Positions 44,410 to 62,569 of a DNA stretch of 64,000 nt are shown in pieces (positions within the stretch are counted from its first letter, which is position 1; every line of letters starts with the position of its first letter). The stretch lies in the IMG/VR virus record IMGVR_UViG_3300043419_000898, positions 18,498 to 82,497 of that record; one strand, written 5' to 3'. Source of the stretch: a virus. Both the position numbers and the translations under genes were made by a program. The notes under the pieces are model-generated. The model was given only the letters and a program-made list of their open reading frames with translations, made no database searches and was not told the DNA's origin.

Positions 44410-44431
44410 TTTGGTAGGTTCCCTCTTGTGA

Positions 44432-45241: not shown

Positions 45242-45264
45242 TTTTGGTTCCCTATACTTTCCGA

Positions 45265-46193: not shown

Positions 46194-46553
46194 GCATCAA
46201 TATTACCATTTTGTCACCTTGACGCAAGTAAATATATGGTACGTATACAAAAATAGTTAATGCCTCTATAGGCTCAAATTTGGCTATTCTAGACACTTAT
46301 CATGCCAGATGAGTTATGTATCGGACGGTATGCAAAACGGCTCTATTTAGGCAATGTGGAGGTTCCGCCCAATGCAGGGCTTTGGAGTAAGGTGACTGGT
46401 AGTCACCGTGTAAGGTGACCTATAGTCACGTGCTAGATAGCAGGACTACTGCTGAGTATGGCAGCCTGTAGGTAGTTGATTTTGCAACGATAGGATGGCA
46501 TAAGTAAACCGGCTGGACATCCAGCCGGTTGGAGTCTACGTAGTGGTGGTGAC

Positions 46554-46913
46554 CTACTTGGAGTAGGTCATCGTACCGTGAAAGTCTACGTACAAGTCGG
46601 TGGTGTCCATCACAACGTGAAAGCCTACCGTGATATGCTGGACGCTTTCAGTCATGTCTACCGACATGTCTATGGACTTGACATTTCCATTTGATGCACA
46701 GACGTTTACCAATTCCACAACGTCGGTGATGTCATACGACTTGTGATTTGTTATCATGCCATCCACTACAGTAGTGGATGTGTAGTAGCAGAAATTTGCC
46801 ATTTTGGCTACGTTGTGGACGCTATTTTGCGTCATCTGAAGTATTCCAGATGTGTAGGTGATGTCGCCTTGTACAGCGATGTCAGAGGCGATGATAGCAG
46901 ATAAGATTGTCAT
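46554..46913 (-). CDS. Hypothetical cassette protein
   Basis: AGGGAACCGACAAATG. Confidence 0.65.
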   Translation of the reverse strand: MTILSAIIASDIAVQGDITYTSGILQMTQNSVHNVAKMANFCYYTSTTVVDGMITNHKSYDITDVVELVNVCASNGNVKSIDMSVDMTESVQHITVGFHVVMDTTDLYVDFHGTMTYSK

Positions 46914-47183
46914 TTGTCGGTTCCCTATTAAGTCAGTGTAGGTCGTTTCCTACACCACTATGTTACCACTTTGTCTACCTATCGCAAATAAATAGTCGGA
47001 CTATTTTTGCCATTTACCAGTGATAGGCATGGTGACTATTAGTCACGTAGCAGATGGCAGGAACGGCTCACAGTATGGCAGCCTGTAGCAGTCGGTCGGT
47101 CGTTGCATAATCAACAAAGCCGTGACATAAATAAACCGGTTGGATTTCTCCAACCGGTTGTATGCCTACGTAGTGGATGTGGA

Positions 47184-47396
47184 TTAGAAATCCAAGTCTA
47201 CATCCGTTTTCGCAATTACCTTGACGGTACGACCGCTCTGGAGCGTCACGCTCCAGACTTCGGTATCACCCTTTGTACGGATGATTTTCGCATCCACCAT
47301 ATCGGTAAACGTGGCATACGTCATATTGGACGTACGTGACACAAGAATGTCCATGCGGATATCCGCTCCGGTGGTGGTGGTGGTAAATGTTGTCAT
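47184..47396 (-). CDS. Hypothetical cassette protein
   Basis: AGGGAACCAAAAATG defines the start. Confidence 0.65.
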   Translation of the reverse strand: MTTFTTTTTGADIRMDILVSRTSNMTYATFTDMVDAKIIRTKGDTEVWSVTLQSGRTVKVIAKTDVDLDF

Positions 47397-47413
47397 TTTT
47401 GGTTCCCTTTCCT

Positions 47414-47665
47414 TCAAACAAAGAATGTCATTTTGACATTTGCATTTTCACACTTGATGTGCGAAACGTTTCCTTCAACGGTGAAAACGGTTACAACGTT
47501 GGACATTGCAACCCAAGCGGTGAATTCATCCGCCGTGCTATCTTCAGATGCCGATACTACACCACGGCGGATGGTATCGAATGTGATTTCCATATCGGCA
47601 TTTGCCATGGCATGGAAGTCGCAATTGTAGCAGAAGACATTTTTGAGGTTCACGGTAGTATTCAC
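47414..47665 (-). CDS. Hypothetical cassette protein, leaderless
   Basis: GTGAATACTAC start just after TATAAT. Confidence 0.6.
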   Translation of the reverse strand: MNTTVNLKNVFCYNCDFHAMANADMEITFDTIRRGVVSASEDSTADEFTAWVAMSNVVTVFTVEGNVSHIKCENANVKMTFFV

Positions 47666-47938
47666 GACGTTATTATATCAAGAATGTCACGTTTACAAGG
47701 GCATTTCGGAGCCAAGTACAAAAAATAAACCAACTATTTTTTCACCATTTACCAGTGATAGGTATGGTGACTAAACGTCACATATTTCCTTGAAAATGCA
47801 ACTATCAGCGTTACGATTACAGGAAAGTCAGTCGTGGTGGCAGCCTGCCGTCGTCTGTTGTTTGTTGATTATGCAACGATAAGTTGACATGAAAAAACCG
47901 GCTGGATTTCCAACCGGTTGGATACGACGAAGTGGATA

Positions 47939-48124
47939 CTATCCGGTTAATCGAACCATCAACAAATCCAGCATGATGGCATATTCAAAAATGTCGCCGA
48001 TTATGATATCTGCCATGGTGGCATAGGCGTTCATTTTGACAAACCATGCATCGGCTATGAACGCTAGTGGTGTGCCGGTGGCTATGCCAGCACAGAGGTA
48101 TTTTTGGTCAATGTTCATTTTCAT
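47939..48124 (-). CDS. Small hypothetical protein
   Basis: GGAG RBS; terminator follows. Confidence 0.5.
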   Translation of the reverse strand: MKMNIDQKYLCAGIATGTPLAFIADAWFVKMNAYATMADIIIGDIFEYAIMLDLLMVRLTG

Positions 48125-48133
48125 ATACTCCAA

Positions 48134-48298
48134 TTATCCGGCATAGTGCCGGATAAGACATACTGCAAGTACTACGACGAAGCCGACCATGTATAGCACC
48201 ATACCGGCAAGTATGACAGCAAAAACAGAGGCGGCGAATGGCGACATGACACGGCTGTAGTCAACGTCGGTGGTGGTGGTGGTTTGTTTGGTTCCCAT
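48134..48298 (-). CDS. 54-aa membrane protein, leaderless
   Basis: ATGGGAACC start; MGTKQTTTTTD..FAASVFAVILAGMVLYMVGFVVVLAVCL; not in ORF track. Confidence 0.55.
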   Translation of the reverse strand: MGTKQTTTTTDVDYSRVMSPFAASVFAVILAGMVLYMVGFVVVLAVCLIRHYAG

Positions 48299-48455
48299 GC
48301 CTATCATTATACTGGATTGTCAACGTATCGCTAATTTATTTACGTAATAAATGCGAACTGTTGCAAAATCAACAAACGGCTTCTCCGACAGGTTTAGCTC
48401 GGTGAGAACTAACCTGCCATGACAGATACAAGCCGGGATTTCTCCCGGCTTATTT

Positions 48456-48728
48456 TTAGTTGATGTCTAAAACAACCGTTTTGTGGATAACACCATTACT
48501 AGTAGCATCCATTACTACCGAATCATCATTTACACAAATAACCCAAAGGTAGTGGTCAAACCGTGTGATTGTCACCGCCTCACCGGTTTTGTTGAATTTG
48601 CGTACGGCTGACGTGGCTTTAGTTTCATACAAATCAGCGAAACTAGGACGTGTACGTTCACTAGCATGATGGAAAAATTCATTTGATGCCGTCAAGGTGG
48701 TGGCTGACAAAGTTACTAATTTTTTCAT
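48456..48728 (-). CDS. Hypothetical cassette protein
   Basis: GAGGGAACCACTATG. Confidence 0.65.
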   Translation of the reverse strand: MKKLVTLSATTLTASNEFFHHASERTRPSFADLYETKATSAVRKFNKTGEAVTITRFDHYLWVICVNDDSVVMDATSNGVIHKTVVLDIN

Positions 48729-48989
48729 AGTGGTTCCCTCACCTAAATATTACCATACTTTGTCAATGTGTAACACATTTTGGAGCCGGTTATGAAAATA
48801 TAGTTTTGACCATTTACCAGTGAGAAGTTGATTATGCAACAAACGGCTTCTCCGACAGGTTCGGCTCAGTGGATGGCAGCCTGTCAAGCCGGGATGTGAC
48901 CTACAGTCACCATGCAAACATTTGTTTGCATTTTCCCAGTGATAGACACGAAAAACCGGCTAGATTTCTCTAACCGGTTGGGTTGTTAC

Positions 48990-49307
48990 TTACTTGGAAC
49001 GTGCTGGCCACGTGCCATACCGGATAACACCGGCATCGATGTACATAACACCGGTGAACGTGTCATCGGTAGTACCATCGCGGAATTCCTTGAATGCTAC
49101 GTTCATCCGAACCATTCTTTGCCCTTGCTGTGTGCCATGCACGATGCCACGTGCTACGCTACCGTCGCCTAAGATAGCGGACGCTTGACGGATGCCGAAT
49201 TGTTCGAACAGCATTTTTTCCGCTTGCTTTACAGCGATGGCATTTGCCGCGACGGAGTCGGAGGACGTGTCTACCGTGTCCCAACCGGTTGGTGTAGTGT
49301 TTTCCAT
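48990..49307 (-). CDS. MENTT-leader cassette protein
   Basis: ATGGAAAACACTAC leaderless start. Confidence 0.7.
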   Translation of the reverse strand: MENTTPTGWDTVDTSSDSVAANAIAVKQAEKMLFEQFGIRQASAILGDGSVARGIVHGTQQGQRMVRMNVAFKEFRDGTTDDTFTGVMYIDAGVIRYGTWPARSK

Positions 49308-49591
49308 ACCTAATGGTATCACCTATTGTCACCTATGCAAACTATTTATCGGATATATTTTCGGCAGTTTACCAGTGAAATTTCAAATTCATGGTGACAG
49401 ATAGTCACGGCTAGCTTCTCCGACAGGCTGCCATCCCTACTGTAAGTCCTGCCAAGCCGGGATGTGACGGATAGTCACGTGTGACTTTTGGTCACATCAA
49501 AATCGAAATGTGACTGGAAGTCACCTATCAGGCATAATGCCCAATGCAGGGGTGCTGTCACCACCCCCCCCCCCGCTGGTACCCGCTCCGA

Positions 49592-49825
49592 CTAGTCACC
49601 GTAGTGGAATTCATACAAACATTCGGAACAAATGTTCCGCTCTTCCGTACGAACAATTTCGCCGGTGTAGTCATGTTTGTGGATTTGGCACTCGTATACA
49701 TCATTGCCTAATCCGTCATTGCATTTATCGCAACCGTAGCGGGTGAAATGACGCTCTTCGGCGTTCTGCATGGTGACATTTGCACCGGACATTTCGAGCG
49801 ATTCGATGTACTCTTCCCAAGTCAT
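49592..49825 (-). CDS. Small Cys-rich (CxxC x2) cassette protein
   Basis: AGGGAACC leader; CDKC...CSEC. Confidence 0.65.
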   Translation of the reverse strand: MTWEEYIESLEMSGANVTMQNAEERHFTRYGCDKCNDGLGNDVYECQIHKHDYTGEIVRTEERNICSECLYEFHYGD

Positions 49826-50008
49826 TTTCGTGGTTCCCTTCATAGCACTTGGCTACACTAGAATAATACCATGTTGGTAGACAAAGTCAATGTGAAAAAT
49901 TACCATTGAATATGCAACAACTGGAACAGCAGGATAGATTCCTAGTTTCACAACCTGCCTATAGGTCAAGAAAAAACCGGCTGGATGGTTTCCAACCGGT
50001 TTGATGTA

Positions 50009-50242
50009 TTAGGCTCCGAAACCGAGCCTTTTTCGCCACGTTGGGGCATTTTTTGGGTCTTGACGGTACCGGAGCTCGGCACTGCAATAGTGGATTTCAT
50101 CGGTGTAGTATCCGATGTTTGGATTATCCGGTTGGAGCCGGATAACTTGCTGACAGTCGGCAATTATGTGCCGGAGCGAGTGAAGGCAATTGTGTACCAG
50201 ATTCCGCTGATACTCGGTGTGGTTCATTTGTTTGGTTCCCAT
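50009..50242 (-). CDS. Hypothetical cassette protein
   Basis: ATGGGAACC start; YY.DEIHYC..EL..R. Confidence 0.65.
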   Translation of the reverse strand: MGTKQMNHTEYQRNLVHNCLHSLRHIIADCQQVIRLQPDNPNIGYYTDEIHYCSAELRYRQDPKNAPTWRKRLGFGA

Positions 50243-50401
50243 GCATCTAATTTACCACCACTTTGTATACGTTGCAAATGTATTTTGTTGTTAGAGAATA
50301 ACTATTGAATATGCAACTACATTGAGCAGATGGCAGGACTACCGAGTGGGAGTCAAGCCTGTCACAAGACAAAAAGAAAACCGGGATTTCTCCCGGCTTG
50401 A

Positions 50402-50659
50402 TTAGTCTTCGATTTCTCTTGGTATGCATATACACGCATTGACCAATTCTCTTTCCGACATCATACGCACCACGTAATTTGACATGGTGATTTCACCGGC
50501 GTCGGCACCATCAGAGTATTGAGTCGCCTTGATGGTGATATCTCGACCCATAAACATTTCCGTACCTACGTTACGGAGCAACGCTGGTACCGTGGCAACG
50601 AATTTGCCATTGACGGTGAAGTTGTACGTACCACTGAGGTACTCTTTGGTGTTTCTCAT
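50402..50659 (-). CDS. Hypothetical cassette protein, leaderless
   Basis: TTGACA promoter then ATGAGAAACAC. Confidence 0.65.
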   Translation of the reverse strand: MRNTKEYLSGTYNFTVNGKFVATVPALLRNVGTEMFMGRDITIKATQYSDGADAGEITMSNYVVRMMSERELVNACICIPREIED

Positions 50660-51020
50660 GCCTATATCCTAGGGCATGAATTAGACTTTGTCAACACCTA
50701 TTTTGAAAATAGTTTTATAGGCATACGGTACAAATTTGCTACCACGGCTCAAATGCAACAATGCCTCTATTTGTCCAAATTTGGCGATTCTAGCCACTTA
50801 TCATGCGATATTGAGTAAAGTATCATCGAGCATCAAAAACGGCTCTATTTGGGCATTTCAGAGCGTTAGTCAAAACGTGTCTGTTGTTTGTTTGATTATT
50901 CAACTATGGCAGGGCTAGTCACCACTCAGTAAGCCTGTCGTCAGGCAAAAAGAAAAGCCGGGATTGCTCCCGGCAGCTGCCTACGATGTAGAGCTGGGAT
51001 TTCTCCCAGCTCATTTCCTA

Positions 51021-51251
51021 CTAAAGGTAAAGCGACTTTTTGGTTGGCTCCAACCATTCTTCACGGAGCATAAAGGCAGCCATTTTCAAGCTACCCAAGC
51101 TCTTTTCATCGCAATCACGGATTTGGTCCATAAGCATTTCGACAGCTTCCAGAGCAATTTCAAGCCGCTTTTCGGTGATTGTCGCATTGGCGGCGATAGA
51201 GTCGGACGATGTATCGACTGAAGTCCAGCCGTTTGGTGTAGTGTTTTCCAT
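51021..51251 (-). CDS. MENTT-leader cassette protein
   Basis: TTGACA-17-TAAGAT-6nt-ATGGAAAACACTAC. Confidence 0.7.
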   Translation of the reverse strand: MENTTPNGWTSVDTSSDSIAANATITEKRLEIALEAVEMLMDQIRDCDEKSLGSLKMAAFMLREEWLEPTKKSLYL

Positions 51252-51401
51252 GTCTATATCTTACGGCATGAAATAGAGAATGTCAACAACTATTTTACAT
51301 TTGTTTTTAGAGCTACTAGCAGCTGCCAACGGCAGGTTCGGTGGCTGGTAGTAAGTCCTGTTGTGAGGCAAAAGAAAAGCCGGGATTCCTCCCGGCTTGC
51401 A

Positions 51402-51623
51402 TTACGATTTATGAGTAGCGATTATTTTTTCTGCTATCCAATCCCAATTTATATCATCAAGCATATCCAGCAGATAATCATACTTTGGGGATTCATCCAT
51501 AAAGTAATCGTGTGCCACCGACATTGCCTCACCACCATTGAATCCGTCTCCTGAGGACTCCCATTGTGCGACAAATCCATCATAAACGGTATCTAGTACT
51601 AGTTCAGTTTCAGCGTTTATCAT
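51402..51623 (-). CDS. Hypothetical cassette protein
   Basis: AGGGAACCAAGATG; C-terminal INW..IA shared with ORFs at 57438 and 59907. Confidence 0.65.
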   Translation of the reverse strand: MINAETELVLDTVYDGFVAQWESSGDGFNGGEAMSVAHDYFMDESPKYDYLLDMLDDINWDWIAEKIIATHKS

Positions 51624-51850
51624 CTTGGTTCCCTTTCACAATTATTATACCACTTTGTCAACTATCTGCAAGAAAATATATCAACTATTTTTTGACTGAA
51701 ATAAAGACAGGTTCGAAGACTGGTAGTCAGTCCTGCCACAAGGGGGTGTGACGGATAGTCACCATGCAAACATTTGTTTGTTTTCCCAGTGATAGACATG
51801 AAAAAACCACTGGCTGATTTTAGCCAGTGGTGTAGCCTACGATAAAGGGA

Positions 51851-52099
51851 TTAGGCTAACTCTAGAGCCTTCTCCGTGAGTGCCCAACCGTACTTACCGC
51901 CTTCTGGGTCGAAGTCGATTAGTCCAGCGTCCTGAGCACCAGACATAACGCCAGCGGTACGCTCATTGCTCCAGCCGGTGACCTTGGCTACCATTTCGGC
52001 ACTAAACCACGAGTGGTTATCGAGCATCAATTGTGCCGCGGTCTCGTACGGGCTATCGGCGATTACGACTTCTACCAAACGCTTCTGAAATTCTGTCAT
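51851..52099 (-). CDS. Possible winged-HTH cassette protein
   Basis: SAE.VA..TGW.....AGV......GLI; structured leader. Confidence 0.6.
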   Translation of the reverse strand: MTEFQKRLVEVVIADSPYETAAQLMLDNHSWFSAEMVAKVTGWSNERTAGVMSGAQDAGLIDFDPEGGKYGWALTEKALELA

Positions 52100-52442
52100 T
52101 GTGGTTCCCTCAGTAGGTTAGGTTGTTTCCTACCTACACTATGATAATATGCTATAACGTAGACAAAGTCAAGAAAATAAATGGCATATTGGCAAAATAT
52201 TTTTGACCATTTACCAGTGAAAAATCAATCTCATGGTGACTTCTAGTCACGGGAGTCTTTGACAGGTTTGGCTACTAGTAGTCAGTCCTGCCGATGTGAC
52301 TGTCCGTCACGTGTGACCCAGCGTCACGGAGGTGACTATCAGTCACGGTGACTAGCCGTCACCATGTGCACTCTGCCCAATACAGGTGTCATGCGTCCAC
52401 CCCCCCCCTCCACGCCGCCAGCCAAAGAAAAGAAAACCGGGA

Positions 52443-52658
52443 TTACTCCCGGTTAGCCGCCACTTCGTTGCACGTGGCACAATCGTTGCAGATTTCTTCG
52501 TCTGCTATCCAATCATCTTCCCAGACCCAATCACCGCATTGTGTACACTGCATGGTACTAGGCTCCGCACCATAGCAATCATCATCCATATCATCTGCCA
52601 TCATCTCAGCATCCAGCCACGGTGCGATATTCGACTCCAGCATCCATTCTTCGTCCAT
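52443..52658 (-). CDS. Acidic Zn-finger-like cassette protein
   Basis: AGGGAACCAAAATG; CTQC...CNDC. Confidence 0.6.
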   Translation of the reverse strand: MDEEWMLESNIAPWLDAEMMADDMDDDCYGAEPSTMQCTQCGDWVWEDDWIADEEICNDCATCNEVAANRE

Positions 52659-52823
52659 TTTGGTTCCCTTCCTTCCTACATCAATAATATACCGTACATA
52701 GTAGACAATGTCAAGCAAATACATGAAAATACTTTGGTTGCATAATCAACAAACAACAGAGATGGCAGGATAGATGCCTACCTATAAGTCCTGCCATAAG
52801 GCATAAAAAAAGAGCCTTTCGGC

Positions 52824-53132
52824 TCATGCGAACATTTCGTCATACTCCATAGTGATTGCCTCTTCCCATAGCAGATTGACGTGATGGCGAAGCATCATAC
52901 TTCCTACATACTCAGTCACTACCAGATTGACGTTCCACTGTGCATCACCGTGCAATTCCGCCATCGTGTCATGCACCTCTTCACCGAATGCTTTGATAGC
53001 ACACATAATGATTTGCTTTTCATCTGCATCCAGAGGCGTATCAATGTTGATAGCGTGTGACCAGACTGCACGGTCTTCCATTGTGGAGGCGTCAAGTGCA
53101 CCGCAGATTACGAAGTGTAGTGTATTTCCCAT
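52824..53132 (-). CDS. Hypothetical cassette protein, leaderless
   Basis: ATGGGAAATACACTAC start. Confidence 0.65.
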   Translation of the reverse strand: MGNTLHFVICGALDASTMEDRAVWSHAINIDTPLDADEKQIIMCAIKAFGEEVHDTMAELHGDAQWNVNLVVTEYVGSMMLRHHVNLLWEEAITMEYDEMFA

Positions 53133-53241
53133 GCCTATATCTTATCATACTTTGTATACGTGTCAAGAAGTATTTTACTTGAATGTGCAACTACCTGAGA
53201 TGGCAGGAGTTGCACGATAGATGGCAGCCTGTAAGCCTCCA

Positions 53242-53400
53242 TCACTCCTCCCTTCCCTTGTGCTTTGCCTTCCGGCTGTACGTCCGTTTGTTGTCGTACA
53301 CCATCGATTTCTGCCACGGGCGGTCACTAGCCGGTATGCGTGATTTGTTGGCTGTACGGGCATTCTGGAGCTCTCTGTCGGTTAGTTTAATCGTTTTCAT
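53242..53400 (-). CDS. 52-aa basic protein with ArfA/BrfA-like C-terminal motif
   Basis: AGGGAACCAATG; ...VYDNKRTYSRKAKHKG; not in ORF track. Confidence 0.55.
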   Translation of the reverse strand: MKTIKLTDRELQNARTANKSRIPASDRPWQKSMVYDNKRTYSRKAKHKGREE

Positions 53401-53450
53401 TGGTTCCCTTTCAAAGATAGAGCCGGTATTTCTACCGGCTCATTGAGTGA

Positions 53451-53672
53451 TTACGCTACGTTGATGTTTCCGTGCTTGACACAGAGTGCATCGTAGATTT
53501 CTCTACCGTTTTCAGTAAGGGATTCGTATCCCTTGTGAAGTGGTGAGATACGAAACTGCATTCGGTGCAACCTTCCGAAAATCCGGTAGATTGGGCAATT
53601 CATGCCACCATGCCAATCACTTGCGAACGCATGGTACGCTTCGCAGATATCAAACCTATCAAAATTCGTCAT
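53451..53672 (-). CDS. Hypothetical cassette protein
   Basis: AGGGAACCAAGTTATG; FDRFDICEAY...L.ENGREIY. Confidence 0.65.
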   Translation of the reverse strand: MTNFDRFDICEAYHAFASDWHGGMNCPIYRIFGRLHRMQFRISPLHKGYESLTENGREIYDALCVKHGNINVA

Positions 53673-53813
53673 AACTTGGTTCCCTTCCGACACTGTTAAT
53701 GTACCATGCCTAGTAGACAAACGCAAATAAATAGTCAAACTATTTTTGTTGTTTATGCAACTAAATAACCTGTCATCAGACAAAGGGAAAGCCGGGATTT
53801 CTCCCGGCTTTCA

Positions 53814-53834
53814 TTCTAGGGAACCAACCTAGAA
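53814..53834 (-). ncRNA. Candidate antisense hairpin (loop UUGGUUC)
   Basis: TTCTAGG-TTGGTTC-CCTAGAA just before a terminator; complementary to AGGGAACCAA. Confidence 0.45.
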
Positions 53835-53993
53835 AACTCTAGGGATTAAGGTTCCGATGTAGATTAGCACTACCGCTATACCTAGGTACGCTCTATCTTT
53901 GCGATGCATAGCACCAAATAACAAAGCCAACAAAAGCATTCCAAAGATACCGCTGAAACTTACTAACCTTGACAAATCTTCTATGATTATCAT
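53829..53993 (-). CDS. 54-aa two-TM protein
   Basis: AGGGAAG RBS; hydrophobic; not in ORF track. Confidence 0.55.
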   Translation of the reverse strand: MIIIEDLSRLVSFSGIFGMLLLALLFGAMHRKDRAYLGIAVVLIYIGTLIPRVF

Positions 53994-54151
53994 CTTCCCT
54001 ATCCCTTTCCTACACTACTAATATATCACCACTTTGTATACTACGCAAGGCATTTATCAAACTATTTTCAGAGACCACCGATGGCAGGAGCTGTACCACG
54101 TATGGCAGCCTGTGCAGAGGCATAAAAAAAGGAGCCTTTCGGCTCCTACTC

Positions 54152-54472: not shown

Positions 54473-54478
54473 GTCTAT

Positions 54479-54527
54479 ATATTACCATACTGGTATACAA
54501 AGTCAAGGAAATGACAAAACTATTTTT
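54479..54527 (-). promoter_or_regulatory. Representative cassette promoter
   Basis: AAAAATAGTTTT UP-like element, TTGACT-16nt-TAATAT with TG extension, ATG 6 nt later; similar promoters precede most cassettes. Confidence 0.75.
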
Positions 54528-54629
54528 CGGTTGCATAATCAACTACTTTGACCGAGATGGCAGGATAGATGACCTACGGTAGAGCCTGTCGTATGGCAAA
54601 AAGAAAACCGGGATTTCTCCCGGTTCGCT

Positions 54630-54836: not shown

Positions 54837-55033
54837 TTTGGTTCCCCTTGTAGGCTAGGCTACTTCCTTCCTACATCTATATAATACCGTACCTAGTATA
54901 CAATGTCAAGAAAATAGTCAAAGTATTTTTGTTGTTTATGCAACTACTTACAACAGATGACAGGTTTAGAGCTGAGTATGGCAGCCTGTGAGGAGGCAAA
55001 AGAAAAGCCGGGATTTCTCCCGGCTAGTGCCTC

Positions 55034-55264
55034 CTAGTTGAAGTTGAATGGTGCCTTCTGGATGTTCTCTAGGCTTTCCCGTAGGATTCGCACGTAAATG
55101 GTGAACCTAGGGTCATTTATCACCTCAAGTGTATTAAGTGCGGATTGTGCGATTTGAAGTGTAGCACCATACTTTTGCGATGGATGCATTGCATCCAATT
55201 CTACGCTAGTGCTATCAGACGACGTGTCGATGGTATCCCATCCGTTTGGTGTAGTGTTTTCCAT
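55034..55264 (-). CDS. MENTT-leader cassette protein
   Basis: ATGGAAAACACTAC leaderless start. Confidence 0.7.
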   Translation of the reverse strand: MENTTPNGWDTIDTSSDSTSVELDAMHPSQKYGATLQIAQSALNTLEVINDPRFTIYVRILRESLENIQKAPFNFN

Positions 55265-55485
55265 ACATATATGTTACAAGGACTTTGTATATATGTCAAG
55301 GAATATGTCAAACTATTTTCAGCGACCGAACTTGGCAGGAAAGTGAACCTAGGTACAGTCCTGTGATACGGGATGTGACTGTCCGTCACCATGCTGACTA
55401 TCAGTCACGTGGCATGACATCAAAAAAGCCCCTCCGGATGGAAGGGCTTTGCTCATTGCAGGTCGTCTGGGTTGCACCCCCCCCC

Positions 55486-55749
55486 TTAGCGGAGGGAGAG
55501 GTATTTCCCGTGTGTGATTTGTCCGGTCTCTACGAGCTCGTGGACGTATTTGGCGATGTCACGAGCATCCCATTTGTAGAACCCGGCTTCGATATCGGAC
55601 ATCACGCCTTCGGTGTTAGCGTAGTAGACTTCCATAGTCTCATCTGCATCCATCACGAGAACGGATGCTTCACCGCGCTCATTTGACATATTGACGTAGT
55701 ATTCGGTGTATCCGATACCGTCACGATTTGGTGCGTTTACGAGTGGCAT
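55486..55749 (-). CDS. Hypothetical cassette protein
   Basis: AAGGAAGGG RBS after promoter. Confidence 0.6.
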   Translation of the reverse strand: MPLVNAPNRDGIGYTEYYVNMSNERGEASVLVMDADETMEVYYANTEGVMSDIEAGFYKWDARDIAKYVHELVETGQITHGKYLSLR

Positions 55750-55911
55750 TTCTTTGTACCCTTCCTTCACATATATATTACCATACTTTGTATACGTGTC
55801 AAGAAAATATGTGAACTATTTTTACTTGCATAATCAACAACAGGACTGTCACTAGGTATGGCGGCCTGTAAGATGGCAAAAAAAGAGCCGGGATTTCTCC
55901 CGGCTTTCGCC

Positions 55912-56103
55912 TTACTCCTTGTCGAAGCCGTCAAACCAAGGACCCATGCGACGGGTTCGGGCTTTCCCGGTAGCATTGGTGCACGTACTGGACGACGTCT
56001 GCGGGTCGCTACAATGTGCCTTCGCTTCTTCAAGCGTCAAACCACGCTTGATGGTGCGTCGTCCGCCTTCGAAGTACATCCGGATAATCTTGTAAGTGGT
56101 CAT
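55912..56103 (-). CDS. Small basic cassette protein
   Basis: Structured leader; YKIIR...GLTLEEA.AHC.DP.TSS. Confidence 0.7.
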   Translation of the reverse strand: MTTYKIIRMYFEGGRRTIKRGLTLEEAKAHCSDPQTSSSTCTNATGKARTRRMGPWFDGFDKE

Positions 56104-56196
56104 TTTTGGTTCCCTTTGTAGGCTAGGTTGCTTCCTTCCTACACCTATATATTACCACACTTTGTCACCTATGCAAGAAAATATATAAACTATTTT

Positions 56197-56460
56197 TCAA
56201 GCGTCCGAGATGACAGGTTCCATCATCGGCAGCCACTCTTGTTCTAACCACTTCATAAGCTGCTTGTAATCCACTCCCGTATACACAGCTCTACCATCGG
56301 TGAACAGCGTGACCTTACGACGGTTCCTGTAAGGGTAGAGGCTGACTCCTACCGTCATTCCTAGGCTATACGCTAGGTTTACAAGCTTGGTGAACAAAGT
56401 CCCGTCAAGCGTGAAAAAGCCTCTAGATTCGTCATCTAGAGGCTTGTAGAGGCTACTCAA
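56197..56460 (-). CDS. Hypothetical protein
   Basis: Coupled to the upstream ORF. Confidence 0.5.
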   Translation of the reverse strand: MSSLYKPLDDESRGFFTLDGTLFTKLVNLAYSLGMTVGVSLYPYRNRRKVTLFTDGRAVYTGVDYKQLMKWLEQEWLPMMEPVISDA

Positions 56461-56822
56461 TACGATGGTCGGAAGATACCAGCGGTAGCATTGGCGGTAC
56501 CACGTGCATCATGCTCTGCATCACGATTTTCGATTTCTACCCAATAAAGGTAGTCATTGAACATTTCATACGTCATTTTCCGTGGATGTCCAACGATGCA
56601 AACAAGATTGTCATTTTCCGTAAAGTGATTTTCATCTTCCAGCGAATCAACGATATCACCATCAACGAAGATTTTAGGCACCATATTGGCATCATGGTCT
56701 GCAAGTACAAGCCATTCTTCTGTTGCATCAACAGAATCGATGTACTTGAAGGAATAGCCATTTACCAGCAAATCCCGCACCTCAGCCCTATCCATTTTCA
56801 CGTAGTCATTAAAATTAATCAT
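56457..56822 (-). CDS. Hypothetical cassette protein
   Basis: AGGGAACCAAGATG. Confidence 0.65.
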   Translation of the reverse strand: MINFNDYVKMDRAEVRDLLVNGYSFKYIDSVDATEEWLVLADHDANMVPKIFVDGDIVDSLEDENHFTENDNLVCIVGHPRKMTYEMFNDYLYWVEIENRDAEHDARGTANATAGIFRPSY

Positions 56823-57015
56823 CTTGGTTCCCTTCCCTTTCACATCAATAATATATCGTACCTAGTAGACAATGTCAAGAAAATAGATGGACTATTTTTC
56901 CGTTGACTAATCAACTAAACGGAGAACGGCAGGAGTGACTCACAGTCACCAAGCCTGTCATAAGGCAAAAATAAAGGGGAACCGACTTGGCTCCCCTTGT
57001 GCTAAGTTGGACGCT

Positions 57016-57246
57016 CTATTCGAACGTCACGAAGCCTACCATACACGCTCCCGACGGCTTGAAGGTGAGCGTATCACCGATATTTTCGGTATAGCACCGA
57101 ACGTTAGTCAAGCCTAACTCAGCCTTGACCTTACGCATGATTTGCGACTGAGTCGCATTGTCAGCGATTTCGAACTTACCACGCTGAACCCAACTGTAGT
57201 TTGCTTCACCAGCAAACGTATCTGTCAACTCAAATCGTACTGTCAT
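57016..57246 (-). CDS. Hypothetical cassette protein
   Basis: Structured leader; E.TDTF.GEANYSWV.R. Confidence 0.7.
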   Translation of the reverse strand: MTVRFELTDTFAGEANYSWVQRGKFEIADNATQSQIMRKVKAELGLTNVRCYTENIGDTLTFKPSGACMVGFVTFE

Positions 57247-57437
57247 TTTGGTTCCCCTTGTGGATTAGGTTGATTCCTATCCACATCAATAATATACACC
57301 ATGCGGTAGACAAAGTCAAGGAAATAGGCAAACTATTTTCAGTTGATTAGTCAACTACTTTTGGCTTGATGGCAGGACTACCACTCAGTATGGCAGCCTG
57401 TAAGATGGCAAAAAAAGGAGCCTTTCGGCTCCTCCTC

Positions 57438-57701
57438 CTACCCTTCGTCTTCGTCTTCGTCTTCGATTTCGTTTGCTTCGTTTATCGCATTTGCAATTTC
57501 TTCGAAGTCTACCGCACTGATGTACGTTTCGATGATGTCATTGTAGAGCGAACCCGGTTCCACTCCAGCCGGTGCCATATCACGCACCATATCTTCCACT
57601 GCATCCGCCGATACCTTGGAATCTTCGCCGATGAATGCATCCATGATGTGGAGCGAACAATTCCACGTTTCGTAATTCGCCCAACCGTTGTAAGTGCTCA
57701 T
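57438..57701 (-). CDS. Acidic cassette protein (YNGW.N.ETW family)
   Basis: Paralogue of 59907..60176. Confidence 0.7.
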   Translation of the reverse strand: MSTYNGWANYETWNCSLHIMDAFIGEDSKVSADAVEDMVRDMAPAGVEPGSLYNDIIETYISAVDFEEIANAINEANEIEDEDEDEG

Positions 57702-57960
57702 TTTGGTTCCCTTAGTAGATTAGGTTGCTTCCTACCTACACCATAATAATAGCATAGTGGTAGACAAAGTGCAAGGTGTATTTTTAGTATTTACTTATTA
57801 GTTGTTTGTATTTGATTCAGCAACTAACTCTTACAGGATTGACCAGTAGTCAACAGTCCTGCTACACTCAACTGCTAGGTGGTTCTCCAGCTACCTAAGC
57901 ATCATAACAACTACCAACCAAGTGGGGAAGGGGCACTAGATGGTGCCCCTTTTTAGTTGT

Positions 57961-58230
57961 CTACTTGACTTCGTTGTAAACCTTGTAGACTTCACCACCG
58001 TGGTTATAGAGAAACTTACAGATGATGTGGAGATTTGTTGCACTCCACCTATCCGCACGATTCATGCTATCCATTAGGTCATTTCGTAGGACTGCATCCA
58101 AGAAACCACCCAACATCAAAATGGTGCGGTACTGCACAAAGCGTTCGAACGCTTCGATGTAGGAACCGATGCAAGCGTACTCATTACGGGTTTCTTCGCT
58201 GATGTTCAGCGGGTTAGTAGTGTTTTCCAT
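57961..58230 (-). CDS. MENTT-leader cassette protein
   Basis: ATGGAAAACACTAC; GGFL.AVL.NDL.....RAD. Confidence 0.7.
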   Translation of the reverse strand: MENTTNPLNISEETRNEYACIGSYIEAFERFVQYRTILMLGGFLDAVLRNDLMDSMNRADRWSATNLHIICKFLYNHGGEVYKVYNEVK

Positions 58231-58460
58231 ACCTAATAGTATCATAGTTGACAAAGTCTGCCAGCATCCTAGGACATTTATTTTCAGGCAGAAGTTGACA
58301 GGCTCGGAGCCTACCTATCAGTCCTGCCAATGTGACTTCTGGTCACCATGATGACTATCCGTCACATCCACACACAACAAAAAAACCTAGGCTTTCACCT
58401 AGGCTTTGCACATTGCAGGGCGTGAGTCTCCGCCCCCCCCCCTCCCCGCCGTGGAGCCTC

Positions 58461-58724
58461 CTACAGTTCAAGTACCGTGTAGGAATACTCCTCCTCATTG
58501 TCAAGCCGTACGGTGAGCGACACATCGCCGTATACGGCACCCTCAAAGAGGATTTCGTATGTCATGCCATACCGTGAAAGGTACTCGTGCACAGATGATG
58601 CCAATTCATCGTATGTGTTAGAGTCTACGGAGCCGACAACCTTGAGTGGTTGACCTTCTCCAACTTCACCGGGAACGCCTTCGAAGATTTCGATTACTAG
58701 GAATCGTGATGTAGTGTTTTCCAT
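58461..58724 (-). CDS. MENTT-leader cassette protein
   Basis: ATGGAAAACACTAC leaderless start. Confidence 0.7.
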   Translation of the reverse strand: MENTTSRFLVIEIFEGVPGEVGEGQPLKVVGSVDSNTYDELASSVHEYLSRYGMTYEILFEGAVYGDVSLTVRLDNEEEYSYTVLEL

Positions 58725-58862
58725 ACCTATATATTATCACACTTTGTCAATGTGCCAAGAACTATTTTAGTTGATTATTCACTGTACAGCGATAACAGGA
58801 TATTCAGTGAATAAGGCATCCTGTAAGGAGGTAAAAGAAAAGGAGCCTTTCGGCTCCTCCTC

Positions 58863-59126
58863 TTATCCTACGACTTCGCTGATTTGGTCAGCATAGCACC
58901 AACGCATACCGTTGCACGGTACATCTATCGGCTTGATGGTAAAGATAGCGAGCTCTTGGCTCAGGTCAACCTTATTGACCGTTTGACCATACTTGATACG
59001 CTGGTTGCCAGTGGCTTCGATTTCTACCACGACTGCACGGCTGGCTGGCTCCATGCCAAAGCAACCGCTCCACATAACGATGTCGCCGATTTTGACCATT
59101 CGGCTGATGGTAGTAGTGTTTTCCAT
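58863..59126 (-). CDS. MENTT-leader cassette protein
   Basis: ATGGAAAACACTAC leaderless start. Confidence 0.7.
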   Translation of the reverse strand: MENTTTISRMVKIGDIVMWSGCFGMEPASRAVVVEIEATGNQRIKYGQTVNKVDLSQELAIFTIKPIDVPCNGMRWCYADQISEVVG

Positions 59127-59214
59127 GCCTATATCTTACACCACTTTGTATACTATGTCAAGCGCATTTTGTTGTTTATTTTAGACAGCTCTGATTTCCT
59201 GTGATAGTTCAAAT

Positions 59215-59420
59215 AGGGAAAGAGGAGGCAGATTGCTCTGCCTCCTCTTCAGTCGGGAACCAACCGACAATCGTTTGCCGAGCTGCGATGCTCTAGGCTT
59301 ATAAAGGTTATATCGTATAGGCTCATATTTGCCAAATCTAGAGGCTAAAAGATAGGAGGCTAACTATGAGCGGATTAGCCTCCTATAGAGTCCCTACGGA
59401 AACACCACCAACCGTAGGGA
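59215..59420 (-). ncRNA. Candidate small-RNA locus: two antisense-loop hairpins, each followed by a terminator
   Basis: TCCCTACGG-TTGGTGGTGTTT-CCGTAGGGA (59391-59420) + terminator 59352-59386; GTCGG-TTGGTTC-CCGAC (59252-59268) + terminator 59220-59249. Confidence 0.5.
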
Positions 59421-59429
59421 CATTGCATA

Positions 59430-59705
59430 CTAGCGTTTGGCTAGTAAGTCTGCGTACCCGACAATCATCGTGTCGATGTACGGGTCATTGCAGATTTCAT
59501 CAACAATGACATCGTCGGTGTTCTCTTGTACAGCGACTCCGAACCAGTGGCGAAGTTCGCTGATTTGTACAGCGGTAAGGTCTTCGACTGCTGTATTTAC
59601 CAAGTCGATACCCAACTCATTCTTGATACCTTCAAGGTGAGTTTCCGTCAATGTTCCGTGCATCTGGAAGTTGATGCTAACGCTTCCCGTGAGTGTAAAC
59701 TCCAT
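59430..59705 (-). CDS. Hypothetical cassette protein
   Basis: Leader carries both GGGAACC and GGAAAAACACT. Confidence 0.65.
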   Translation of the reverse strand: MEFTLTGSVSINFQMHGTLTETHLEGIKNELGIDLVNTAVEDLTAVQISELRHWFGVAVQENTDDVIVDEICNDPYIDTMIVGYADLLAKR

Positions 59706-59906
59706 AGTGTTTTTCCGGTTCCCTATCTGTAGGCTAGGCTTGTTCCTTCCTACACAACTAATATACCCTATACGGTAGACAATGTCAAGAAAATAGACAA
59801 ACTATTTTTAGTTGCATAGTCAACAATCTACAACGGCTGACAGGTGAGACTAGTAGTCACTAAGCCTGTAGCAAGCCAAAAAAAGGAGCCTTTCGGCTCC
59901 TATCCA

Positions 59907-60176
59907 CTACCCTTCCTCTCCTTCCTCTTCGTCCTTCTCCCGGTCTTCGTTGATGTGCTGTACCACCTCATGCCAATTCACGGAGGCGATGTGCTGATTT
60001 ACGAGCCATTGAGCGTACTCGCTTTCAGAGGTGCCTATCCACTCCGCTACCAATTCCTCCGCCGTCTCCCGCTCCATGTCGGCTTTGGCTTCGCTTGCCA
60101 CCTCAATTAGAGCATCGCCAAAGGCGAGCATAACGTGCCAAGTGTCCCAGTTCGTCCATCCGTTGTATCCACTCAT
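59907..60176 (-). CDS. Acidic cassette protein (YNGW.N..TW family)
   Basis: Structured leader; paralogue of 57438..57701. Confidence 0.7.
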   Translation of the reverse strand: MSGYNGWTNWDTWHVMLAFGDALIEVASEAKADMERETAEELVAEWIGTSESEYAQWLVNQHIASVNWHEVVQHINEDREKDEEEGEEG

Positions 60177-60379
60177 TGTCGGTTCCCTCAGTAGGCTAGG
60201 CTTGCTTCCTTCCTACATCATTAATATACATCATAGGTTGACAATGTGCAAGCGAATTGCCAAAAATAAATGAAGAATGTTTGTTGACAAATCAACAAGC
60301 TGGAACGGCTTTACAGGCTTAGAAGGTAAGCAGCTCTCCTGCCATCAAGCAAAAGAAAAGGAGCCTTTCGGCTCCATCT

Positions 60380-60592
60380 CTACTCCTTGTTGAAGTCCTT
60401 CGCTACTTCACTCCAGAGAGCGTCGTGTTTGGTAATGAACTTGTAGTATTCATCCCGTAGCAACCGGATGAGCTCGGTTTTGTCTACCTTTTCATCGTAC
60501 TCTACGTCATTCAAGACACGTGCAACGTTGAATGCGTGCTTTACGGCGATGTCCGCTTTGCGGGCTTCATACTTCTCTGTAGTGTTTTCCAT
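60380..60592 (-). CDS. MENTT-leader cassette protein
   Basis: ATGGAAAACACTAC leaderless start. Confidence 0.7.
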   Translation of the reverse strand: MENTTEKYEARKADIAVKHAFNVARVLNDVEYDEKVDKTELIRLLRDEYYKFITKHDALWSEVAKDFNKE

Positions 60593-60635
60593 GTCTATAT
60601 CTTACCTTTACTTTGTCAATGTGTCAAGTCTTTTT

Positions 60636-60890
60636 TCAACTATTTTGAAAATAAGTCTCATAAGTGTCTTTGTGACCCGTTGCCTTTTCATACAAGTCAT
60701 CCGACCGCTTTGTGTAGCGGTTCCATGTGGCAACAAGAGCGTCAAGCATCTCATCCCGTTGGATTTCCTTGTTTACGGACGCTCTGCACAGCAAGAGGTA
60801 CATTTCGCCTACGGCATCCACAGCGATGTTTTCACGCTCTGCTGTGTACTCTGCCATTGTCAACGGTTGGGTTTGTGTAGTGTTTTCCAT
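60636..60890 (-). CDS. MENTT-leader cassette protein
   Basis: ATGGAAAACACTAC leaderless start. Confidence 0.7.
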   Translation of the reverse strand: MENTTQTQPLTMAEYTAERENIAVDAVGEMYLLLCRASVNKEIQRDEMLDALVATWNRYTKRSDDLYEKATGHKDTYETYFQNS

Positions 60891-61060
60891 GTCTATATCT
60901 TACAGTACTTTGTATACCATGTCAAGAAGTTTTTCAAGTATTTTCAAAGCACTTTTAGCAGGAGTTGCTACCAGCATACTAACCTGCCATCAAGCAACCA
61001 AGAGAGCCGGGACGCTGAAGACATCCCGGCTCTCTCTATCACCGCACCACCGGTGACTTC

Positions 61061-61399
61061 CTATATCTTGAAAGCCATTGAAAGTTCCATGCATTTCCGG
61101 CTTGACTCATTGAGTTCAACGTTTCCGTTGAAGTGTGCCGGTTGGCTCTTGGTGATAGTCCATTGCTGGAGTCTCCCATTTGCCTTGCTCTCAGCCTCTA
61201 CGGTTACCGTACGACCGTAATTCGACTCTACGTGACCGTATGCGATGTGTCCGTTTTCGAAGGCGTATCGGCTCGCATATCCCACCATGTCAACATGCCA
61301 CGCTACATCAACATCCATGATGTCGATGATTTGAGGCGTCGGGTACTCGCTCGTGGTGAGCATGAAGACAACTTTCGTTGTTAGTGTAGTGTTTTCCAT
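61061..61399 (-). CDS. MENTT-leader cassette protein
   Basis: ATGGAAAACACTAC leaderless start. Confidence 0.7.
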   Translation of the reverse strand: MENTTLTTKVVFMLTTSEYPTPQIIDIMDVDVAWHVDMVGYASRYAFENGHIAYGHVESNYGRTVTVEAESKANGRLQQWTITKSQPAHFNGNVELNESSRKCMELSMAFKI

Positions 61400-61567
61400 G
61401 TCTATATCTTACAGCACATTGTCAACGTTGTCAAGAAAATAGTTAGTTGATTAGTCAAGTAGATATCTTGCAGATATCTTTGCACAGCTGCCAGAAGTTT
61501 TACAGGCTCAGTAGGTAGTAGCCAAGCCTGTAGCCAGCAACAAAAAAGGAGCCTTTCGGCTCCCTTC

Positions 61568-61903
61568 TCAGAATGACCAGTCGTAGTAGTAGTCCCTACT
61601 GCCGAAGCGAACGATGCGGAAGTTCGTTCCCTTGACCTTCCATTTGCCATCCTTCCGGAAGGTGACTACCACCTTGTGTCCGTTTGGATTTGGCTCGACT
61701 ACCCAGCTCTGGTGCCCGAAGTCAACATTCTCCGCTGCCTTGACGCTATCCCGTTGAAGCGTGACAGTCTTACCAGACTTCGAAACTTCGACTACCGTGT
61801 AGACTTCACGGTCTGTGTAACAGTACTCCGTTGCACCATCGCCGACCTCTGGTGTCTTGCATCCGACACGCTCTACCAACCGATTGATTAGACTTCCTTG
61901 CAT
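61568..61903 (-). CDS. Hypothetical cassette protein
   Basis: GAGGGAACCAATATG; P.VG.GAT....DR..YTV..V...G.R.YYYD.SF. Confidence 0.7.
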   Translation of the reverse strand: MQGSLINRLVERVGCKTPEVGDGATEYCYTDREVYTVVEVSKSGKTVTLQRDSVKAAENVDFGHQSWVVEPNPNGHKVVVTFRKDGKWKVKGTNFRIVRFGSRDYYYDWSF

Positions 61904-62139
61904 ATTGGTTCCCTCTTCCTTACACAACTAATATATCCTACTTTGTCAACGGTGTCAAGAAAATAGTTGAAGTATTTTCAGCCGACGGATTTCACAGGAG
62001 TAGACGGGATGTGACTTTCCGTCACCTGACTGGTGACTATCCGTCACATGAAAGGCAAAAAGAAAACCACACAACCGTTAGGCTACGTGGTTTGCACAAT
62101 GCAGGTATGCGGACTTCGCACCCCCCCTCAGCCGGACGC

Positions 62140-62388
62140 CTACACCCCTTCGGTGTAAGCATCACATTCGACAAGGATTTTGTCGATGATGTATGCGGCT
62201 TGGAAGACATCGACGCTATGGTCGCTATCCGCTTCCAGTTCTGCGATGCAAGGTCCACCCTCAAGGTGGTTAGCAGAACATGCGTTGTGCCCTTCACAGC
62301 AAGAGTAGAACATGTACTCTGGTACTTGCTCATAGATGTGGAAACGGATGTACTCAGCGGTGCCGTAGGTAACTTGTGTAGTGTTCAT
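62140..62388 (-). CDS. Hypothetical cassette protein, leaderless
   Basis: ATGAACACTAC start after promoter. Confidence 0.65.
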   Translation of the reverse strand: MNTTQVTYGTAEYIRFHIYEQVPEYMFYSCCEGHNACSANHLEGGPCIAELEADSDHSVDVFQAAYIIDKILVECDAYTEGV

Positions 62389-62569
62389 GCCTATATATTA
62401 CAGCACTTTGTCAACGTTGTCAAGTAGTTTTTTGTTGTTTGTTTATTATTCTTACAACCAAGTACTGGAGAAGTATTACAGGATAGATGCTTAGGTATCT
62501 GACCTGTAATCATGGGTAAAAAGATGCCTTTCGGCATCTGTAAGACAAAAGGAGCCTTTCGGCTCCTCC

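Follow-up and report, generated by a model that had tools for sequence, protein, structure and literature searches.

The virus record IMGVR_UViG_3300043419_000898 is 82,497 bp long and rated complete by CheckV, and its right-hand 64 kb (positions 18498-82497 of the record, here called the window) hold, from about 43.9 kb to the window's end, a long run of small minus-strand genes, most of which have their own sigma-70-like promoter and intrinsic terminator. The junctions between these single-gene cassettes carry the element that concerns us here, a box of the form RCAGG-N20-CCTGY, in which two short inverted words enclose 20 variable nucleotides. The phage (G000 in what follows) encodes an HK97-type major head protein, a portal and a large terminase, which were matched to general PHROG families; the terminases of cultured phages are at most 41.5% identical to its own, and none of these relatives is T4-like. 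When 30 cassette proteins were compared with Pfam, 28 had no match and two were DUF7249. Early small-gene arrays are the seat of many anti-defence and host-takeover genes, and how their modularity is kept up is poorly understood.

The pattern CAGG-N20-CCTG occurs 29 times in the window, with starts from 46441 to 62479, where 0.78 matches are expected. This expectation stems from 100 dinucleotide-preserving shuffles, of which the richest held three matches and none reached 29; the starts given in a first-pass annotation of the window were recovered exactly, and its estimate of about one match by chance is close to this value. The annotation is to be corrected in that a further site, at 56214-56241, is decayed in this genome (CCTG to CTTG). 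Outside the array, the pattern is absent from the whole 82,497-bp record, and a control with the pattern read backwards gave zero. When all spacers from 0 to 80 were scanned with a reporting threshold of three matches, only N20 (29 matches) and N4 (3 matches) reached it. A purine precedes CAGG and a pyrimidine follows CCTG in 29/29 sites, the 29 interiors are all different, as had been stated before, and 23 of the 28 site-to-site gaps lie between 375 and 650 bp (full range 375-1089 bp), again in line with the earlier description.

One complete relative, G001, was found in IMG/VR (83,860 bp; terminase protein 97% identical, DNA about 80% overall and mostly 72-90%), and its array has 25 N20 sites and one N21 site. 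A metagenome scan by cassette protein led to six loci, all of which carry arrays; the six contigs hold 8, 13, 3, 17, 4 and 3 N20 sites (48 together) and one N21 site, such that the total sample comprises 102 N20 and two N21 sites from eight sequences (G000, G001 and the six contigs). The 20-nt spacer, which the first-pass annotation had called invariant, is so in this genome, but the relatives carry N21 at 75606 in G001 (the ortholog of window 59841) and at 6214 in L232. The three longer gaps of 51, 58 and 59 nt at the distal junctions are real, the N51 form being a decayed N20 site plus a later CCTG, and G001 has four such long forms (two N58, one N59 and one N51). Near and distant DNA searches of a phage collection with window 30000-46000 and 46001-54000 gave no match, a count of the box in 230 loci found arrays in G000 and G001 only, two extended patterns run against a viral contig collection returned, besides G001, almost only single matches that we take as chance, and a viral contig scan with the conserved site 18 matched G001 alone. 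Parts of the array are present in 24 public runs from 13 studies, all but three of them labelled freshwater, aquatic or pond metagenomes; among the public runs found, none is an RNA dataset with the array, and one run labelled RNA-Seq is probably DNA.

The features are listed below in window coordinates, with a strand where one is assigned.

46441..46468, site 1, CAGG-N20-CCTG, pattern match
47058..47085, site 2, pattern match
47820..47847, site 3, pattern match
48389..48416, site 4; contigs of three runs join 48395 to 48863, with one cassette lost
48856..48883, site 5, pattern match and strain contigs
49424..49451, site 6; among the few with CTGCCAT at the gene-strand 3′ end
49930..49957, site 7, pattern match
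50334..50361, site 8, pattern match
50910..50937, site 9, pattern match
51333..51360, site 10; N20 identical to that of site 11 at 15/20 positions; one strain contig joins 51360 to 51744
51708..51735, site 11, pattern match and strain contigs
52263..52290, site 12; four GTGAC-N5-GTCAC palindromes before it on the gene strand
52766..52793, site 13, pattern match
53204..53231, site 14, pattern match
54085..54112, site 15, pattern match
54561..54588, site 16, pattern match
54961..54988, site 17, belongs to the example junction
55336..55363, site 18; N20 identical in 6/7 sequences with this junction, one change in the seventh
55841..55868, site 19, pattern match
56930..56957, site 20; GTGAC-N5-GTCAC palindrome inside the interior
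57373..57400, site 21, identical in G001
57834..57861, site 22; G001 ortholog at 73579
58299..58326, site 23, pattern match
58796..58823, site 24, pattern match
59841..59868, site 25; G001 ortholog with a 21-nt spacer
60314..60341, site 26, pattern match
60959..60986, site 27; contigs of two runs regain likeness exactly at the plus-strand CCTG (60983)
61503..61530, site 28, pattern match
62479..62506, site 29, comes after two tandem terminators
56214..56241, decayed site, plus-strand CAGG-N20-CTTG; intact orthologs in G001, L232, L234, L235 and L236
43955..43982, decayed site, plus-strand CTGG-N20-CCTG (gene strand CAGG-N20-CCAG), at the distal end of the array; same decay in G001
43923-43983, long form N51, a decayed N20 site plus a later CCTG
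44844..44911, long form RCAGG-N58-CCTGY, with two GTTG-N6-CAAC palindromes inside
45710..45778, long form RCAGG-N59-CCTGY, with two GTTG-N6-CAAC palindromes inside
55006..55025, minus strand, example junction: intrinsic terminator stem-loop AGCCGGGAGAAATCCCGGCT with T-run, stem end 17 nt before the CAGG of site 17
54931..54944, example junction: GTTG-N6-CAAC palindrome, 16 nt past the CCTG of site 17 on the gene strand
54881..54909, minus strand, example junction: sigma-70-like promoter TTGACA-17 nt-TATTAT of the next cassette, from the promoter search

Two of these entries call for a comment. Site 22 and its G001 ortholog seem, by eye in an ungapped listing, to differ by one insertion and one deletion, with the length still at 20. 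The family of the decayed site at 56214-56241 sits in a possible 53-codon open reading frame (ORF; ...KQLMKWLEQEWLP..., 56197-56358, minus strand) and not after a terminator.

The junctions share one architecture, which can be read along the gene strand (minus) in the order that the first-pass annotation had given, with the site after a terminator and before the next promoter. The terminator stem is followed by 17 nt (T-run and GCCT..TGR), the 28-nt site, about 15 nt and a second palindrome, either GTTG-N6-CAAC or GTGAC-N5-GTCAC, followed by an A/T-rich box and then by the next gene's -35. Between 44000 and 63900, 64 promoter-like sites were found where 35.2 are expected, and 50 terminator-like sites where 15.5 are expected, in both cases mostly on the minus strand. 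A strict search finds a G+C-rich hairpin with T-run at most 70 nt upstream of 60 of the 102 N20 sites, and in 57 of these 60 the stem ends 14-20 nt before CAGG, the mode being 17 nt (32 sites). Of the 42 sites that remain, 21 carry between one and four interposed GTGAC-N5-GTCAC palindromes, and some imperfect hairpins were missed by the rule. In 11 junctions of this genome, the GTTG-N6-CAAC palindrome has its first base at +39 to +45 relative to the site start, and in four others the GTGAC palindrome occupies the same place; depending on the presence of this second palindrome, the distance from site to -35, by coordinate arithmetic, is either 51-55 or 33-39 nt. The site thus goes with terminators, within a junction of nearly fixed length.

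The interior of the site is not free sequence. In a gene-strand alignment of 54 sites, the base before CAGG is A in 35 and G in 19, the base after CCTG is C in 32 and T in 22, and T at -2 and A at +31, each found in 39/54 sites, are mirror images of one another, which extends the arms to about TGR-CAGG and CCTG-YCA. When 40 non-redundant sites are split into 80 half-sites, 45 have A and 3 have G at position +5, G at +10 and T at +12 occur in 1/80 each, and position +13 shows C in 42 and A in 4 of 80, with chi-square p values between 1e-5 and 1e-10 for these preferences. Since each half is separately biased in this manner, the whole 28-34 bp is weakly two-fold symmetric, with the interior consensus R-CAGG-A-Y..Y.VCT|AGB.R..R-T-CCTG-Y or, more fully, TGR-CAGG-A-Y..Y.VCT|AGB.R..R-T-CCTG-YCA, and with a centre near ACT|AGT. 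The 40 non-redundant sites have no central dinucleotide in common (TA 11, AG 6, TG 6, CT 5 and eight further dinucleotides). The earlier statement that recurring words in the interiors occur in either orientation was too strong, as the commonest of them, CTGCCAT, is found at the gene-strand 5′ end of 15 of 82 unique sites, as compared to 3 of 82 that have it at the 3′ end.

Inverted words around a loop-sized interior raise the question whether the element works as a folded strand, that is, as an RNA or single-stranded DNA hairpin of CAGG and CCTG with a 20-nt loop that serves as a guide, a decoy or a processing signal. The minimum-energy fold of the 30-mer does close the CAGG/CCTG stem in 47/54 sites, and the 20 nt differ from site to site as guides would. 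However, the interiors fold no better than shuffled ones (mean -7.76 vs -7.09 kcal/mol, Wilcoxon p = 0.20), and the stem has no covarying extension: of the flanking R..Y combinations, A..C is the most frequent (45/93 unique sites), the flanking bases can pair in 48/93 where 53 would be expected if they were independent, and positions further out behave likewise. This lack of covariation and of excess folding argues against a hairpin in RNA or DNA. Furthermore, the site comes past the T-run of the terminator and ahead of the next promoter, its constant parts measure 4-5 nt, and a two-fold symmetric interior suits duplex DNA read by a dimer. A guide array of the type of clustered regularly interspaced short palindromic repeats (CRISPR) would have repeats of at least 20 nt around spacers within one RNA, in contrast to constant parts of this size in sites that are 375-1089 bp apart and split by terminators and promoters. 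We therefore consider a folded-strand function hardly credible, and the first-pass annotation, which had ranked guide RNAs as the less likely reading, was right to do so, also in view of the fact that orthologous N20 sequences change at the rate of the neighbouring intergenic DNA. The results on folding and on the flanking bases point instead to a protein that would read each half-site of duplex DNA.

How the site is inherited bears further on its nature. When junctions with the same genes on both sides were compared, the exact site was kept in 101/104 ordered comparisons; known departures comprise three deletions and two decayed sites, besides the two sites with N21. Across orthologous junctions, both the length and the eight end bases are strongly retained. 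The N20 itself is 0.886 identical between orthologs as compared to 0.82-0.88 in the flanking zones (21 junction families, 76 pairs), and is therefore neither hypervariable nor specially conserved, which rules out an N20 under rapid diversification. As this identity table took exact sites only and so carries an ascertainment bias, its zero gaps inside the N20 have no weight on their own, and the count of 101/104 is the unbiased check.

These junctions are places of cassette shuffling. Between G000 and G001 the order of the cassettes differs and the arrays form a mosaic, and strain contigs from the public runs skip or swap whole cassettes, with joints that fall within a site or no more than about 15 nt from one (48395 to 48863 in three runs, 51360 to 51744, 49454 to 51747, 49964 to 55880 and 60356 to 60997). 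In two places, at 47844 and 60983, strain likeness resumes exactly at CCTG, while other joints lie in terminator hairpins (46519 to 47149). Joints at window 45860-45915 and 57317-57460, where the mapping depth peaks at 151 and 3530, are untrustworthy. Both stretches are gene ends rich in GAC/GAA/GAT repeats, which encode acidic tails and attract contigs of many other organisms. The junction anatomy thus marks where these phages swap cargo genes.

In these exchanges the N20 is inherited as one block, more often with the upstream gene. Where the upstream gene is the same and the downstream gene differs, the 5′ and 3′ halves of the N20 are 0.741 and 0.738 identical (34 pairs); where the downstream gene is the same and the upstream gene differs, the values are 0.562 and 0.49 (40 pairs), and unrelated sites give 0.347 and 0.337. 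A "10 + 10" model, in which each half of the N20 belongs to its own cassette, was discarded, as the two halves go with one and the same neighbour to an equal degree. Breakpoints were taken from change-point alignments of 32 rearranged junction pairs, because the ends of BLAST high-scoring segment pairs are blurred by paralogous junction modules. The breaks fall into several zones, namely the T-run (-13 to -18), the CAGG|N20 border (+4), the N20|CCTG border or its vicinity (+20 to +24), the stretch past the second palindrome (+59 to +67) and positions beyond the 120-nt frame. Such a pattern is what homologous recombination in the shared sequence flanking a unique 20-nt island would leave. The mapping of cassette breakpoints that the first-pass annotation had called for thus puts joints at or near the sites and also in terminator hairpins and shared flanks, and none at the site centre.

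Shuffling at a short symmetric element begs the question whether a recombinase cuts within the 28 bp, either at a serine recombinase crossover site or at a site of the integron attC type; a cassette-exchange site had also been among the functions first listed. Crossover sites of small serine recombinases are of similar size (28 bp for resolvase site I, 26 bp for hix and gix), and their outermost bases are the best conserved. The box resembles them in its roughly 28 bp, its two-fold symmetry and the four conserved bp at each end. Cassettes are moreover gained, lost and reordered at the junctions between strains, several homology breaks fall exactly at CAGG|N20 or N20|CCTG, and the window encodes a fragment of the "Recombinase" domain PF07508 (41278-41766, 29.4 bits). 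Against this, a Pfam scan of 69 ORFs (a set that leaves out ORFs of less than 90 aa outside the array and most structural genes) found no catalytic recombinase (Resolvase) domain, the central dinucleotide is not common to the sites (TA in 11/40, and 11 others), and the halves of the N20 do not segregate with their own flanks. Breaks at the N20 edges are also expected from homologous recombination, further breaks lie in hairpins or past the second palindrome, and a YqaJ-type exonuclease is consistent with a homologous recombination pathway of the phage's own. Integron cassettes are promoterless, and attC sites have RYYYAAC...GTTRRRY ends around an imperfectly palindromic, folding interior; here, every cassette comes with a promoter, the ends read RCAGG and CCTGY, and the interior folds like its shuffles. 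Because of the block inheritance, the breaks in the flanks, the lack of a catalytic recombinase among the scanned ORFs and the unshared dinucleotide, we do not class the box as a recombination site, and regard this explanation as very improbable. What stands of the exchange-site proposal is that cassettes are shuffled at the junctions; that the N20 moves as a block, with breaks in shared flanks, speaks against it.

Taken together, the box is probably a DNA site that is read by a protein. Protein binding, which we infer from the fixed ends, the length kept in orthologous junctions, the symmetric interior and the non-hairpin behaviour, is in keeping with the first-pass proposal of a DNA-level site for a large dimer that spans over two helical turns. 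The reading that we prefer, and put forward tentatively, is that RCAGG-N20-CCTGY is a putative docking site for a dimer on duplex DNA and serves as a boundary or roadblock element of the terminator-promoter junctions. A two-fold symmetric duplex site of about 30-34 bp would dock a dimeric DNA-binding protein, or a pair of dimers, and would form the fixed part of a composite junction between some 30 single-gene early units that are presumably read by the host's sigma-70 polymerase. The bound protein would mark and seal the boundary between cassettes, in that it may block polymerases that have passed the terminator and so shield the next promoter, and each cassette would thereby be expressed on its own. 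Since the site goes with terminators and not with promoters, marking or sealing the boundary would be its most likely job, and among the functions first listed the insulator or roadblock fits the coupling to the terminator best; a boundary or roadblock role in particular is nevertheless a possibility about which we have clear doubts. Termination by roadblock is known from eukaryotic Reb1 and TTF-I and from mitochondrial mTERF. We regard as rather unlikely the far-reaching version, in which a dimer dedicated to this task would sit on the DNA about 17 nt downstream of every intrinsic terminator of the early array, as a form of roadblock termination in a bacterial virus that turns some 30 tandem, strongly transcribed units into fully insulated modules, and in which the unique 20-nt interiors would make neighbouring junctions less homologous, such that cassettes are lost more slowly.

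The main rival of this reading is that the box is the operator for the next promoter. A phage or host dimer at each junction would then act as a global timing regulator that switches the next early promoter off or on, in the manner of phi29 p4, whose sites lie upstream of its promoters, and the link to the terminator would be a by-product of compactness. The distances from site to -35, which form two tight classes (33-39 and 51-55 nt), are what one might expect of an operator, as is the fixed register with the second palindrome, and genes for a repressor-like protein of the XRE type (43630-43923) and for a tandem helix-turn-helix (HTH) protein (41278-41766) adjoin the array. However, three strong promoters that lack an upstream terminator (63682, 63390 and 60627) have no site at their junctions, and the N20 follows the upstream gene more often than the downstream gene. 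Between the two classes of distance there is an offset of about 15 bp (1.4 turns), such that helical phase to the promoter is not kept. We therefore consider a timing operator rather unlikely.

Several observations weigh against a docking site with a boundary function. The centres of the two tetramers, CAGG and CCTG, are 24 bp or about 2.3 turns apart and thus do not lie on the same face of the helix, as a simple dimer would prefer, and the N58 and N59 forms would misfit a rigid dimer unless another protein bends the palindromes that they enclose. At least three terminator junctions are without a full site (terminators ending at 53787, 53420 and 62064), with CAGG alone kept near 53.8 kb and CCTG alone near 62.0 kb. 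The promoter distance, with its two classes of 33-39 and 51-55 nt, is too nearly fixed for the coupling to the terminator to be exclusive. The counts on inheritance come from non-independent pairs, and some of the "different" neighbour clusters may be diverged orthologs. Finally, the two candidate regulators have diverged in G001, to 44% identity for the tandem HTH protein and 57% for the XRE protein, though the site ends are the same, which makes both of them weak candidates and favours a better-conserved protein of phage or host.

As to these candidates, the 162-aa ORF at 41278-41766 (plus strand) matches PF07508, the DNA-binding "Recombinase" domain of large serine recombinases, over residues 29-74, has a second similar motif at about residues 94-132 by eye with sub-threshold HTH matches only, and is without a catalytic domain; a PDB sequence search with it gave no match. 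The XRE repressor-like protein at the array's edge (43630-43923; PF01381, E = 1.1e-8) found repressor-like matches in the same database. One HTH_17 protein and two ParB_N proteins are further products with DNA-binding domains.

A reader supplied by the host would be a chromosome-organising or topology factor, such as a nucleoid protein or a topoisomerase that relieves the supercoils which accumulate where many strongly transcribed units end. The sites do lie at the 3′ ends of transcription units, and their ends and consensus are identical in two phages whose regulators share 44-57% identity, fitting a conserved reader. On the other hand, the box is not enriched (16-21 matches vs 6-13 for the control) in three metagenome-assembled genomes of 3.7-4.6 Mb each, which were chosen by their distant terminase relatives (33-35%) and whose status as hosts is not established, and the central consensus is unlike the cleavage preference of gyrase. 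A host factor of this sort seems improbable. Repetitive extragenic palindromic (REP) sequences and bacterial interspersed mosaic elements (BIMEs) of enterobacteria are conserved imperfect palindromes that are transcribed and in part bind host proteins. Like them, the box is a short repeat past the 3′ ends of transcription units, but only its ends are constant, its interior is not palindromic, and it lies after the T-run.

The closest known architecture is that of the promoter-early stem-loops (PeSLs) of T4-type phages, which are described in the abstract of Arbiol et al. 2010 (PMC2839356) as small composite cassettes of a strong sigma-70-like promoter and a stem-loop terminator that flank small non-essential genes without a known function in plastic regions, where recombination shuffles genes between related phages; PeSLs are also the subject of Comeau et al. 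2014 (PMC4122927). The composite of strong early promoter and terminator between small genes is likewise present here, as seen in the numbers and order of promoters and terminators, and cassettes are likewise shuffled, as seen in the G000/G001 mosaics and in the strain skips (among them 46519 to 47149, 48395 to 48863, 51360 to 51744 and 60356 to 60997). The PeSL type further includes a location in the hyperplastic regions of T4-type myoviruses and the formation of encapsidated mini-circles. This phage is, however, not T4-like, with its HK97-type head genes, its 82.5 kb and its distant terminase relatives, and as far as the PeSL abstract goes (PMC2839356), the additional N20 element with fixed ends and the two palindrome families set it apart.

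With respect to geometry, the nearest match is the phi29 regulator p4, which binds 5′-AACTTTTT-15 bp-AAAATGTT-3′ as two identical protomers (PMC1904284) and acts in the region between early and late phi29 promoters (PMC1904284, PMC3100819). Short inverted words at a fixed long spacing, with symmetric preferences, are common to both. The differences are that words and spacer measure 8 + 15 + 8 bp as opposed to 4-7 bp and 20 bp, that the p4 site relies on A-tracts whereas the interiors here avoid A/T runs, and that phi29 has few sites as compared to about 30 here, one per junction. No p4 homolog was found, though no search was aimed at one. By analogy, the box is thus like the long-spaced dimer sites of p4, placed in a PeSL-like shuffling architecture, but belongs to neither by sequence or lineage.

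New in this work are the interior consensus, the evidence against a hairpin, the coupling to terminators and the block inheritance; a full-text keyword search of the literature for a CAGG/CCTG inverted repeat in phage intergenic DNA returned nothing, which is our sole basis for saying that the element is not in print. With ends of 4-5 bp, a strict ruler of 20 bp, a fixed place after the terminator and some 30 copies per genome, it is a very clean and testable putative boundary element, and its reader protein, once found, would give either a new type of transcription insulator, useful in multi-gene constructs, or a new global switch of early genes.

Some further observations concern the same junctions. 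The 15-bp palindrome GTGAC-N5-GTCAC occurs 24 times in the genome, each time within the cassette array (window 44000-62300), often in runs of two to four between terminator and CAGG or at +39 to +43 after it (e.g., 52300-52370, 55370-55410 and 46410-46440), and looks like the operator of a second dimeric protein. We take it to resemble the enterobacterial matS word, with a longer spacer here. Of the 27 genomic copies of GTTG-N6-CAAC, 19 belong to the array part; this palindrome stands at a fixed 11-17 nt past the site's CCTG, followed by a AAAATAGTT-like box and the -35, and is also found within the N58 and N59 forms.

Outside the array, two small plus-strand ORFs at 41756-42007 and 42303-42503 match a Tad2-like (Thoeris anti-defence 2) domain (E = 4.6e-9 and 2.6e-5). 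The genome also encodes a 526-aa C5 cytosine methylase (genome 197-1777, before the window), an MT-A70 adenine methylase, the YqaJ-type exonuclease, ThyX, a dUTPase, a Mu Gam-like protein and a ParB_N-DUF4417 protein, and for this set of enzymes the coordinates genome 197-1777 and window 31135-31707, 32119-32766 and 26462-27094 are listed.

As for the starts of the cassette genes, at least nine cassettes begin with ATGGAAAACACTACA (MENTT...), 4-6 nt after a -10 box of the TAAGAT or TAATAT type (minus-strand gene starts at 49307, 51251, 54472, 55264, 58724, 59126, 60592, 60890 and 61399). Because the start follows the -10 box so closely, these cassettes probably give rise to leaderless mRNAs with a common start region. 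In the remaining cassettes a hairpin leader is present, and the place of the usual Shine-Dalgarno word is taken by a GGGAACC box that lies 5-8 nt ahead of the ATG.

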